A stretch of DNA of 40,581 bases, from IMG/VR virus record IMGVR_UViG_2534682325_000021, one strand, 5' to 3'. Origin of the DNA: a virus (taxonomy: Duplodnaviria; Heunggongvirae; Uroviricota; Caudoviricetes). Positions within the stretch are counted from its first letter, which is position 1. Every line of letters begins with the position of its first letter. This document shows, piece by piece, positions 15,001 to 18,000 of this stretch. Position numbers: made by a program.

Positions 15001-18000
15001 TATGAACAACTACGGTGACTTCTGCGCTAAACGGGGACGTTTATGCGCACATACAATCCAAACTCTCTTCTCCCTCCACAGATGCAGAAATACACCTGCG
15101 ATTTTTTGCATTCGGTGTTTTTGGCAGCCAAGAACAGGGAGTCTCTGTTTGTCTGGCGGCTAAAGGTGATATGGAAATCGTGATGTCTTAGCCTAAAGTA
15201 GTTGCAACAGTTGGAGCGATTATGGTGGTAGTAGTGATCATCGCGCCCCCCATATGCAAGGGTTGACGACATTATTTATCCGGCGCTATATTCTGTGCGT
15301 TGCCGCAAAATCGGCACACGGGATTGGCGTCCCGGACATCAAAACGACGCATAACCGCGTTCGCGGTTTTTTTATGCGCAGTGCACGTCTACACAAAAAT
15401 TATGGTGGGCTGTGTGAGGGCTTCTTCGGAAGCGCCGGATTTCGTTTTGACCGGTTACGCCAACCTTGCACAGTCCACCACCAGTCGATTGGCGTCGTCG
15501 GTGGTGATAGCTCAAATTCAAAACGAGATTATCGCTATGGTCACTCAGCTCGCATTCCGCGATGTAAAATTCACTCCTATAAATCACAACAACCAGATCT
15601 GGTTTACCAGCAAAGAATTGGCGGCAGCATTAAAATATGCCAGCACCAAAGCAGTAACCGACATCTACAACAAAAATATTGATGAGTTTACTGACGGAAT
15701 GTCTCAGGTCGTCGAATCAACGACCTCAGGAAATTATCGTAAGAAGACTCGCATTTTCTCCCTCCGTGGCGCCCATCTGATCGCCATGTTCGCCCGCACT
15801 CCTGTGGCCAAAGAATTCCGCCGCTGGGTGCTGGATATTCTTGATCGAGAAATTCAACAATCCCCAATCACAAAACAATTCACTGATAACGAACTTTGCA
15901 CACTTGCTTGGTTATGGCGGGCAAGTGACACAATGTTAACCGCTTGCCAAAACGTCACTCCGCTTCTTCAGGTAGCAGAACACCGCGAAGCCGGTCGCTT
16001 CACTTCAATCGAACAAGAATATCCCCGGATACTCAATAAGGCACAGGCAATCCTTGCCAGAGAAACGGCACATGTAAAATTCCGGCCGTGGCAGGATGAT
16101 AAGTGGAGTCGAGTATTGACGCATTTACGTTCTGAACGGCTGTAATAAAGTTGCGGGAGAGAAATGCCGCTAGTATTTTGTAATTAATTGAATGCTGACG
16201 GTTTAATGAGAAGTCAAGAACACTACTTGTACTATAATCGTTCGATGTTAGTGAGGGTTTGATGCAAAAAATGAAGTGATTGACCCTAAATTTGCGCGAT
16301 CAGCGACAGATTGTACACCGAGATCCTGTGGGCTGGAATTTGCAGAGAAATACCGAAAATGATATCCAATATTGTTTTCAGTTCCTACATCATACCTGAT
16401 AAGGGTATAATCATAAAAATTAGGATAATTCAAGTTATAATTGTATGAATAAAAACGACCTTGAAGCATTATCTGACACTAGGCTTAATGAGGCCAAATG
16501 CTTGCTTGATCATGGCTTTTTTCATGGTGCATATTATCTTTGTGGGTATGCAGTTGAATGTGCATTGAAGGCCTGTATTGCCAAGTCATTTTTACAACAT
16601 GAGTTTCCAAACAAAAAAGTCGTAAATGATTCATATACTCATGATTTGTCGCAACTTCTCAAAATTGCCAACTTACATCAAATTTTGATTGCTGACGCAA
16701 AAAATGATGTTTCGTTGGAGATTAACTGGTCGGTCGTTAAAGACTGGAGCGAGCAATTTAGATACGACAATAACATAAGTAAAGCTATGGCCGAACAATT
16801 GTTTGATGCTGTAGGTGACCAAAATTCTGGAGTTTTGAAATGGGTAAAAGCACACTGGTAATCGGCAGAGAGTTGACAAAAGATATGGAATTCTCAGGTC
16901 AATTTTTGTTAAAAAAACTCAAGTTACAGAATTTAACTATTGATGCTGCAATGTGGTTTTATTACCCAGATCTATCTTGGAGATATATTTTAGTTATCAG
17001 TGACTTCTCAGAACGTGGGCCGGCAGAAATATATAGAAAAATCAGTGAGATAAATAGAAATAGCATATCAAAAAAGTATAAGCCGATACCATTAGAAGCA
17101 ATTGAGGCTAAGGGGGATTCAGCTTTTGTTTATAAAATGTTAAAAGGATTTGCTAGAGTCAACGATGGTAAAGTTCGCGTTTCTAATTCTATGGTAAATG
17201 GTTTAGAAATCGTTGACTGTCTGATCTATGAGTTAAAATAAGAAATCTCTTACTGGGTATCATTATTGTTTAAATGACTTTTGATTTTCAATAATCAACT
17301 TGTCATAATTAAGTCACCGGAGTTTGAACTCCTCCGGTGACTTCTGCGCTAAACGGGGACGTTTATGCGCACATACAATCTAAACTATCTTCTCCCGTCA
17401 CAGATGCAGAAATGCACCTGCGATTTTCTTTATCCAGCGTTTGACCTCTGCGGAGGTGAAGCGTGAACCTCCCACAAGACGGCATCAAACTGCATCGCGG
17501 TAACTTCACCGCTATCGGTCAGCAGCTCCAGCCTTATTTGGAAGACGGCAAGTGCTTTCGCATGGTGCTTAAACCGTGGCGCGAGAGACGCAGTCTTTCC
17601 CAGAATGCACTTAGCCACATGTGGTACAGCGAAATCAGTGAATACCTTATCCGCAGGGGGAAATCGTTCGCTACCGCAGCATGGGTAAAAGATGCTCTCA
17701 AACACACATACCTCGGTTATGAAACCAAGGACCTGGTTGATGTCGTAACCGGCGAAATCACTACTATCCAGTCGTTACGCCATACCTCCGATCTTGATAC
17801 CGGAGAGATGTATGTCTTCCTGTGTAAGGTTGAAGCCTGGGCGATGAATATTGGCTGCCACCTGACTATTCCGCAGAGCTGCGAGTTCCAGCTGCTGCGC
17901 GACAAGCAGGAGGCGTAATGGCTACACCGCTTATTCGTGTCATGAACGGACACATCTACAGAGTACCAAATCGTCGTAAGCGTAAGCCTGAGCTAAAACC

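Follow-up and report, generated by a model that had tools for sequence, protein, structure and literature searches.

A putative RNA control module of the P1 immI and Gifsy-1 isrK type in front of an antirepressor gene in a lambdoid prophage of Escherichia coli O157:H7

We analyzed the region in front of the antirepressor gene ant in a 40,581-nt stretch of DNA (hereafter the window; IMG/VR record IMGVR_UViG_2534682325_000021), which is a lambdoid prophage of Escherichia coli O157:H7. This region (positions 15263-15536; nin region, with replication gene P on one side and ybcN/ninB on the other) very probably constitutes a complete RNA control module for the antirepressor, of the type known from the immI region of P1 and from the isrK locus of Gifsy-1. 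It comprises a promoter, a short IsrK-like RNA with two target boxes (a1 and b1), an intrinsic terminator, the gene for a C4-type antisense RNA with two recognition segments (a' and b'), and a second pair of boxes (a2 and b2). Both RNA families are present in full length and with their characteristic anatomy, the a1/a'/a2 and b1/b'/b2 sets co-vary three ways among related modules, promoter and terminator are conserved, and b2 overlaps the ribosome-binding site of ant. Repression by C4 via a2/b2 and activation by the short RNA in trans are the most likely functions, transferred here from P1/P7 and Gifsy-1. We infer that the same scheme operates at the window locus, with titration of C4, processing by RNase P and presumably a phage repressor as the target of Ant.

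The whole window was scanned against Rfam at curated thresholds and then rescanned permissively. Two RNA families were found in tandem, with their matches 25 nt apart. The upstream match is isrK (RF01394) at 15301-15373 (64.1 bits, gathering threshold 50, model positions 1-77), and it corresponds to a predicted small RNA of ~75 nt at 15299-15373 on the plus strand, with hairpin 1 at 15301-05/15312-16, hairpin 2 at 15319-23/15330-34, and the terminator as its 3' end. The downstream match is the C4 antisense RNA (RF01695) at 15398-15485 on the plus strand (82.5 bits, gathering threshold 45), which covers the family over its full length (1-87 of 87). Mature C4 is predicted at 15404-15482 (79 nt) by homology to the annotated 77-nt c4 RNA of P1, and its fold consists of a 17-bp outer stem (15403-19/15464-80), hairpin 1 (15420-24/15429-33) and hairpin 2 (15434-38/15451-55). 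In an alignment of 52 modules, which is used for all column counts below, 90.1% of the cells in the internal helices of the two RNAs are paired and 216 show double-sided changes, and the covariation score of 0.33 (0.15 in shuffles) is reached by none of 500 shuffles; slid controls give 34-44%. No cis-regulatory Rfam family was found in the window even at E ≤ 1 in the permissive rescan. A leader-peptide attenuator or a riboswitch is not supported, there being neither such a family nor a conserved open reading frame (ORF).

The promoter is of the sigma-70 type and lies at 15263-15292 on the plus strand (-35 TTGACG at 15263-68, 18-nt spacer, -10 TATATT at 15287-92; 10/12 match). The score of this promoter taken alone is not beyond chance, as a 5-kb scan found 7 promoter-like sites where shuffles gave 9.1 ± 2.9. 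Nevertheless, 93 of 94 related modules have a promoter-like element at the corresponding position, and the window promoter aligns base-for-base with the isrK promoter of Gifsy-1. The transcript start is predicted at G15299 because of homology to the +1 of Gifsy-1 isrK; Gifsy-1 numbering that starts from position 748 of the L003 sequence matches all nucleotides named in the published work (PMC4825925). Within 15200-15400 no inverted repeats were found at the promoter, and a comparison of this interval with the whole window returned chance matches only, plus the internal a/b repeats, with no repressor operator or Q-related signal. Likewise, the module shows no similarity to the cI-cro intergenic or immunity region.

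The terminator at 15353-15373 (plus strand) has a 6-bp stem with four G-C pairs (15353-58/15363-68), the loop GUUC and a run of seven T (15367-73). An outer helix can form between approximately 15347-53 and 15373-79, and the fold amounts to -7.7 kcal/mol for the core and -13.8 kcal/mol with the outer helix. The hairpin begins ~54 nt after the predicted start, and the T-run ends ~161 nt before the ant ATG (15537). The region has more terminator-like sites than expected (10 against 4.4 ± 2.3). Among 99 further modules (described below) the hairpin is present in 97, with 17 different stems, and 90 of the 97 have it at a distance of 29-34 nt upstream of C4. A first-pass annotation of this DNA, made from the sequence alone, had described a promoter, a terminator about 50 nt behind it and an untranslated leader of about 160 nt in front of a Bro-N antirepressor gene. 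The terminator and the gene agree with our results; the promoter exists with the hexamers and the spacer then given, at a position ~10 nt to the left of the 15273-15307 assigned to it; the length of the leader is also right, but the leader is not empty, since it holds the C4 gene and two target boxes. It had been missed that the leader itself is a C4 RNA gene and that the short RNA holds copies of the C4 target sites.

The recognition segments of C4 have complementary boxes on both sides of its gene, all on the plus strand. The b' recognition loop GAUUUCGUUUUGA (15438-15450) is the loop of C4 hairpin 2, and the a' recognition segment ACGCCAA (15457-15463) is a single-stranded stretch that separates hairpin 2 from the 3' strand of the outer stem. 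Upstream, the a1 box UUGGCGU (15324-15330) lies mostly in the loop of hairpin 2 of the IsrK-like RNA and is complementary to a' over 7 bp, and the b1 box UCAAAACGA (15339-15347) in the same RNA forms a 9-bp helix with the b' loop. Downstream, the a2 box UUGGCGU (15489-15495) is part of the leader of ant, with 6 nt between it and the predicted 3' end of C4, and forms 7 bp with a', and the b2 box UCAAAACGAGAUU (15518-15530) forms a 13-bp helix (one G-U) with b'. This last box includes GAGA (15525-28), which resembles a Shine-Dalgarno sequence, and 6 nt separate its end from the ant ATG. When the target regions were shuffled, an equally good helix was obtained 7 times per 20000 shuffles for b2, 306 for b1, 172 for a1 and 474 for a2. 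The sequences UCAAAACGA and AUUGGCGUC occur exactly twice each in the 40.6-kb window, at the upstream and downstream box sites, and neither the b motif nor the extended a motif occurs anywhere else in it. Between a2 and b2 lies a further conserved box, GGUGGUGA (15500-15507, plus strand), which hardly varies among the 52 aligned modules. Its sequence complements that of the 3' strand of the closing stem of C4 (UCACCACC), so that it could form an alternative hairpin with a2 in the loop; P1 has a matching variant of this complementarity, GGUAGCAGG against CCUGCCACC.

The pairing between C4 and its boxes is maintained in related modules. A sensitive search found related DNA in 247 phage genome records (69-90% identity), and the isrK and C4 tandem, ~25 nt apart, is present in all 12 divergent phage relatives that were picked across this identity range, among them Stx1, Stx2a, Stx2c, Yersinia, Klebsiella and Salmonella phages and Gifsy-1. 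A pattern scan of IMG/VR yielded 99 further unique, parsable modules. These contain 19 types of a' and 43 types of b', and virtually all of their a1/a2 and b1/b2 boxes are exact complements of their own a' and b'. Box a2 co-varies with a' in 98 of the 99 modules and b2 with b' in 92, the cognate b2 helix being at least 7 bp long in 92/99. In the 52-module alignment, a1 and a' are paired in 98.4% of cells (103 double-sided changes) and a' and a2 in 87.9% (83 double-sided changes), and sliding the partners by 1-3 columns lowers the paired fraction to 18-54%. The b' loop has a variable length of 5-16 nt and cannot be aligned well, and column counts were therefore replaced for b':b1 and b':b2 by an alignment-free search, in which the mean cognate helix scores are 20-23 and those of loops tested on the targets of another module are 14. 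C4 pairing with both target sets is under selection. The conserved promoter and terminator together with the co-varying boxes also indicate that promoter, a1b1 RNA, terminator, C4, a2 and b2 are one selected unit.

The module is a well-built, ordinary new member of a family that is known and very widespread; its b' specificity is absent from the 99 comparison modules. Related DNA is found in 2423 of 5426 complete E. coli genomes, at up to seven places per genome, and the exact window variant occurs in 173 records. Several relatives deserve mention in their own right. One IMG/VR record (UViG_2671181028_000005) bears three tandem isrK-C4-rha units at 9650-11266 of locus L047 (minus strand) with a period of 656 nt; the antirepressor genes of these units are near-identical and each unit has a different a'/b' specificity, so that one phage holds an array of differently keyed switches. 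In phage IdasGreatGrand (L004) and Yersinia phage vB_YpM_41 (L007), b2 lies over the start codon or first codons, not over the Shine-Dalgarno sequence, from which it follows that the pairing site moves within the translation-initiation region. Several records annotate small "hypothetical proteins" or an "ash family protein" across isrK/C4, and these are probably mis-calls.

The closest functional precedent for repression is the immI region of P1 and P7, in which the c4 RNA pairs with a2/b2, blocks translation at the ribosome site and so prevents antirepressor synthesis (PMC12197685; NC_005856 annotation). The P1 record annotates promoters, a1, b1, c4, a2, b2 and then the first gene, and our alignment places a hairpin with a T-run between b1 and c4. 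The P1/P7 region (c4-icd-ant1/ant2) therefore has the same order as the window, namely promoter, a1, b1, hairpin and T-run, c4, a2, b2 over the ribosome site, and gene. Both also contain RF01695, carry regulator and target on one transcript, and have their specificity in the a/b boxes, which are UUGACAG / GUUAGUG in P1 and UUGGCGU / UCAAAACGA in the window. The host elements differ (a plasmid prophage in P1, a lambdoid chromosomal prophage here), and the window Ant, with its Bro-N and P22AR_C domains, is unrelated in domain make-up to P1 Ant. Moreover, the window lacks the icd gene that P1 has, so that b2 lies directly on the ant ribosome site.

The closest precedent for activation is isrK-orf45-anrP of Gifsy-1, where transcription from the isrK promoter yields two products, a short RNA that ends at the terminator and an isrK-orf45-anrP mRNA made by read-through (Hershko-Shalev et al. 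2016; PMC4825925). Features that define this type include a terminated RNA of ~77 nt, Hfq binding, and induction of a Q-like antiterminator by the antirepressor. The read-through mRNA is untranslated, and IsrK supplied in trans raises anrP translation more than 100-fold, depending on the pairs G28-C162 and G31-C159 as tested by mutation (PMC4825925). In our alignment, G28 and G31 fall in a1 and C159 and C162 in a', and the same pairs are identical in the window; in Gifsy-1 numbering a2 lies at +192-198, b2 at +222-229 and the anrP AUG at +241. A processed RNA of ~80 nt, STnc1160, arises from "orf45" (PMC4825925), and the position of "orf45"/STnc1160 is that of C4. Gifsy-1 and the window share both Rfam families with the same spacing, an identical a box (UUGGCGU/ACGCCAA), nearly the same distance from start site to antirepressor AUG (+241 and +239) and, as far as the predicted transcripts of the window go, a short terminated RNA and a read-through mRNA for the antirepressor. 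They differ in b specificity, in the antirepressor (ORF6N in AnrP, Bro-N/P22AR_C here), in "orf45", which ends at the anrP AUG in Gifsy-1 and is fused in-frame to ant in the window, and in location, the Gifsy-1 module being directly behind Q and the window module in the nin region and without a downstream isrJ. Prophage induction by IsrK requires the isrK locus in Gifsy-1, and AnrP is sufficient to induce by itself (PMC4825925), which is a precedent for the suggestion of the first-pass annotation that the antirepressor could be the induction route of a prophage with a damaged cro; the cro-like YdaS-family gene of the window (~11726-11948) is indeed marked as frameshifted by RefSeq.

Taken together, these precedents suggest how the window module may work. 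One promoter (15263-92) would start transcripts at ~15299, and most of these would stop at the terminator (15353-73), giving the ~75-nt IsrK-like RNA that displays a1 and b1. C4 would be made only by read-through, presumably being cut out as a stable RNA of ~79 nt, followed by the ant message. Its a' and b' would pair with a2 and b2 in the ant leader, and Ant would remain untranslated because b2 covers the ribosome-binding site, a state that would match the repressor-sparing "immunity" state known for P1/P7. As the short RNA has the same two boxes, it would compete for a' and b' of C4; when in excess it would free the ant ribosome site, and the Ant then made could inactivate a phage repressor. 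The terminator would thereby set the ratio of short RNA to C4. Helices of b2 are longer than those of b1 (median 11 and 9 bp), as expected for target and competitor, respectively. Small-RNA gating, which the first-pass annotation had listed among its options, is the option that fits.

Several observations nevertheless speak against this scheme or parts of it. The Rfam family for the upstream C4 targets (RF03163, c4-a1b1, "a1, b1 targets of C4") matches 15286-15338 with 40.6 bits in the permissive rescan, under its gathering threshold of 46.7, and for that reason we relied on the isrK match and on direct complementarity instead. The window has no icd-like ORF between C4 and ant, which are separated by 51 nt from the C4 match to the ant ATG; it should be added that icd is absent in most family members and that an antirepressor-type gene directly follows C4 in the largest cluster. 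No repressor operator was found at the window promoter, in contrast to P1, in which a C1-type operator (Oc4) overlaps one of the promoters. The GAGA Shine-Dalgarno of ant is weak, so basal translation may be low anyway. In Gifsy-1, the a1 mutations G28A and G31A in cis raise anrP translation (93 and 218 units), which counts against the decoy step, constitutive STnc1160 did not relieve IsrK toxicity, and the authors invoke a structural switch that opens the ribosome site of the upstream ORF (PMC4825925). The role of a1/b1 could also be that of a lock in cis or of a P4-like sensor that couples the C4 level to termination.

The lock in cis is the core of the published Gifsy-1 model, under which cis pairing of a1/b1 with the downstream region holds the read-through RNA in an inactive fold, C4:a2/b2 pairing plays no part, and the short RNA in trans displaces the cis pairing and opens the ribosome site of "orf45" (AUG 15402 here), from which ribosomes run into ant. 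This model has the advantage of direct genetics and in-vitro binding in Gifsy-1, and the AUG at 15402 is conserved and its frame runs in-frame into ant in the window. It is still unlikely for the window, since it leaves unexplained why a2 and b2 co-vary with a' and b' in nearly all of the comparison modules. In addition, the "orf45" frame is not conserved in 14 loci, AUG 15402 has no Shine-Dalgarno sequence in front of it, and P1-like processing would cut inside this AUG. The compensatory mutants also did not restore repression: a' mutants are derepressed, and the a1+a' doubles stay derepressed with 224 and 327 units versus 4 (PMC4825925). This would follow from a requirement for a' to match a2 as well, which had been left unchanged. 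Structural work in Gifsy-1 was done with a 217-nt RNA that ends at +217, before b2, and so lacks this box.

The sensor role has its model in the CI RNA of phage P4 with seqA/seqC, a processed stable RNA with copies of its target on both sides in one transcript, an analogy that the Gifsy-1 authors cite. P4 CI acts by premature transcription termination of replication genes, not by masking an antirepressor ribosome site as proposed for the window, and our Rfam scan found no P4-type RNA family in the window. If a similar attenuation took place here, C4 would pair with a1/b1 on the nascent RNA and change termination at 15353-73, making the terminator an RNA-sensed attenuator that feeds back on synthesis of C4 and of ant mRNA. 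We consider this somewhat unlikely, and it may coexist with translational repression. That b1 ends 5 nt before the terminator stem, with a spacing fixed across the family, would fit it well, as would the 8-fold rise of a Gifsy-1 transcriptional fusion on IsrK over-expression and the analogy drawn by the authors themselves (PMC4825925); yet the onset of translation could relieve polarity and explain the 8-fold rise equally well, our analysis identified no alternative (anti-terminator) pairing that is conserved, and the one reported test, constitutive STnc1160 in Gifsy-1, did not turn out as this mechanism predicts (PMC4825925).

A unit like lambda pR'-6S-tR', proposed in the first-pass annotation, with a terminator overcome by Q (or N) and ant as a late or antiterminated gene, is very improbable. 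The lambda pR'-6S RNA and StxS resemble the window module in having a constitutive promoter, a close intrinsic terminator and an abundant short RNA in lysogens (PMC7547250), and the promoter here looks constitutive and is followed by a strong early terminator. IsrK of Gifsy-1 is also said to come from an antitermination-regulated promoter (PMC7547250), a remark that probably is explained by the position of the Gifsy-1 module, which alone sits directly behind Q. However, the lambda pR'-6S and StxS units lie behind Q and before late genes with Q-dependent read-through, and the window module has none of these properties: it lies 3.6 kb upstream of the Q gene (18938-19387) and the genes behind it are ant, HEPN and nin genes instead of late genes. 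A comparison with 19387-19830, made without a defined Q-binding element for this Q type, gave chance 9-mer matches only. Moreover, P1, a phage without Q, and phages with unrelated Q types share the layout, and the Gifsy-1 isrK promoter alone gives read-through in a plasmid fusion (280 units; PMC4825925). The annotation had also named an upstream start of Ant, which would make the region coding; the candidate starts are TTG 15300 and ATG 15402, and the hairpins would be incidental. A frame is indeed open at 15300-16145 (281 aa), from TTG 15300 into ant, but this alternative can hardly be right, because two full-length Rfam RNA families with compensatory base-pair changes occupy the region, the frame is broken in most relatives, Bro-N starts at residue 15 of the 202-aa product and RefSeq uses 15537. 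ATG 15402, the conserved AUG of AUGGUGGG and the start of "orf45", is in frame with ant without a stop, and an Ant extended to it would have 247 aa. This AUG lies in the C4 stem, and the cut homologous to the annotated 5' end of P1 c4 would fall inside it. Among the 14 aligned loci the "orf45" frame comprises 8, 14, 14, 15, 33, 35, 36 or 45 codons, or is fused, or is out of frame, so that no conserved peptide is recognizable in them.

A broader proposal, which we make tentatively, is that IsrK and C4 may be one system, in which IsrK would be a terminated a1b1 target mimic that titrates C4, "orf45"/STnc1160 would be C4 and not a peptide gene, and the terminator would set the anti-antisense to antisense ratio; the at least 40 b' types, with up to seven modules per E. 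coli genome, would then amount to an RNA "immunity code". If true, this code would determine by which neighbors a given antirepressor can be switched on, and with it a given prophage, Stx phages in O157 included. The Rfam c4-a1b1 motif (RF03163) was described by Weinberg et al. (2010; PMC2864571). The motif spans a1 and the hairpins next to the promoter, overlaps isrK in Gifsy-1, PA5 and an Stx2a phage, and is upstream of c4 in P1; on our scans it overlaps the isrK position in P1, Gifsy-1 and two Stx phages. In Rfam, isrK is not a member of the C4 clan (CL00128), which leaves the two names for one element unlinked. In the literature searched, of which coverage was incomplete, we found no explicit link between IsrK and c4-a1b1. 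Reviews of 2025 list IsrK and c4 separately, and a paper on an APSE phage mentions the two RNAs beside a BRO gene but draws no connection between them.

For specialists of phage small RNAs, the present module refines known biology and is no new kind of system, the main wider value being the evidence for unifying IsrK and C4. The three-way co-variation argues that the P1 c4 mechanism (a2/b2 pairing) also operates in the Salmonella IsrK system, and the matching of a2 offers a testable reason for the failed restoration in the published compensatory mutants. The module also bears on the silencing and release of an antirepressor in an O157:H7 lysogen and on induction of one prophage by another among many lambdoid prophages. 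In annotation, two RNA genes and four target boxes can now replace an "intergenic leader" that RefSeq leaves blank in the window and that elsewhere is mis-called as small proteins.

The controlled gene, ant (15537-16145, plus strand), encodes 202 aa with a Bro-N domain (residues 15-101) and a P22AR_C domain (111-181) in Pfam, and is assigned to "anti-repressor Ant" in PHROG; RefSeq WP_001415151.1 starts at the same ATG. Across the family, the genes after b2 are all of antirepressor type (Rha, Bro-N, ORF6N, P22_AR_N or Derepression) or short icd-like ORFs. Homology of Ant to AnrP was considered and ruled out, for the two have different domain families and show weak N-terminal similarity only (31% identity over 54 aa). 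This difference in domain families implies that the RNA module is shuffled among different antirepressor genes as a portable controller. A further way of holding off an antirepressor is known from the immI region of P22, where the small RNA sar pairs at the ant ribosome site and prevents translation. In contrast to the window regulator, which is on the same strand and upstream of its target, sar is a cis-antisense RNA from the opposite strand, and P22 ant is also controlled by the protein repressors Mnt/Arc.

The 2.7 kb around the module are 100% identical in 176 complete genomes. The gene order of the prophage is S24 repressor (10923-11651), frameshifted cro-like YdaS, YdaT, O, P, the module cassette, ybcN/ninB, rusA, Q and three tRNAs. 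The module rides on a 2.3-kb cassette within the nin region, which consists of isrK-C4-ant, a HEPN gene and a 133-aa ORF and is flanked by a 162-nt direct repeat (14959-15120 and 17281-17442; 81% identity, 2322 nt apart). Each repeat copy contains a terminator-like hairpin (15083-15100 and 17405-17422) and the start of a small gene, that of the left copy being a truncated pseudogene according to RefSeq. The cassette has the appearance of a moron-type element that entered the nin region by recombination. The HEPN-domain protein is encoded at 16445-16861 (Pfam 3e-6; its match to PADLOC PDC-M28A is weak). The 133-aa protein (16840-17241) has no match in Pfam or PADLOC and belongs to PHROG 5760, to which no function is assigned. 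The two genes overlap by 22 nt and may be a toxin-antitoxin or defence pair.

Other features of the prophage lie farther from the module. A 535-aa SIR2-domain protein (9209-10816, minus strand) adjoins the prophage repressor and is similar over its entire length to PDC-S25, a candidate defence family of PADLOC (2e-235), its match to ThsA being weaker; it probably is a prophage-borne anti-phage defence gene. An ALIL pseudoknot, the frameshift signal of the IS3 family, is found at 2830-2946 (minus strand, 121.5 bits) between the overlapping ORFs 2014-2904 and 2901-3227 (minus strand), which indicates an IS3-type insertion sequence within the prophage. Behind Q, the interval 19829-20444 contains the tRNA trio, the first of which is tRNA-Met (CAT) according to ARAGORN and tRNA-Ile according to RefSeq, then STnc100 (20190-20382, 160.7 bits) and, abutting it on the opposite strand, AgvB (20383-20444, 96.5 bits).

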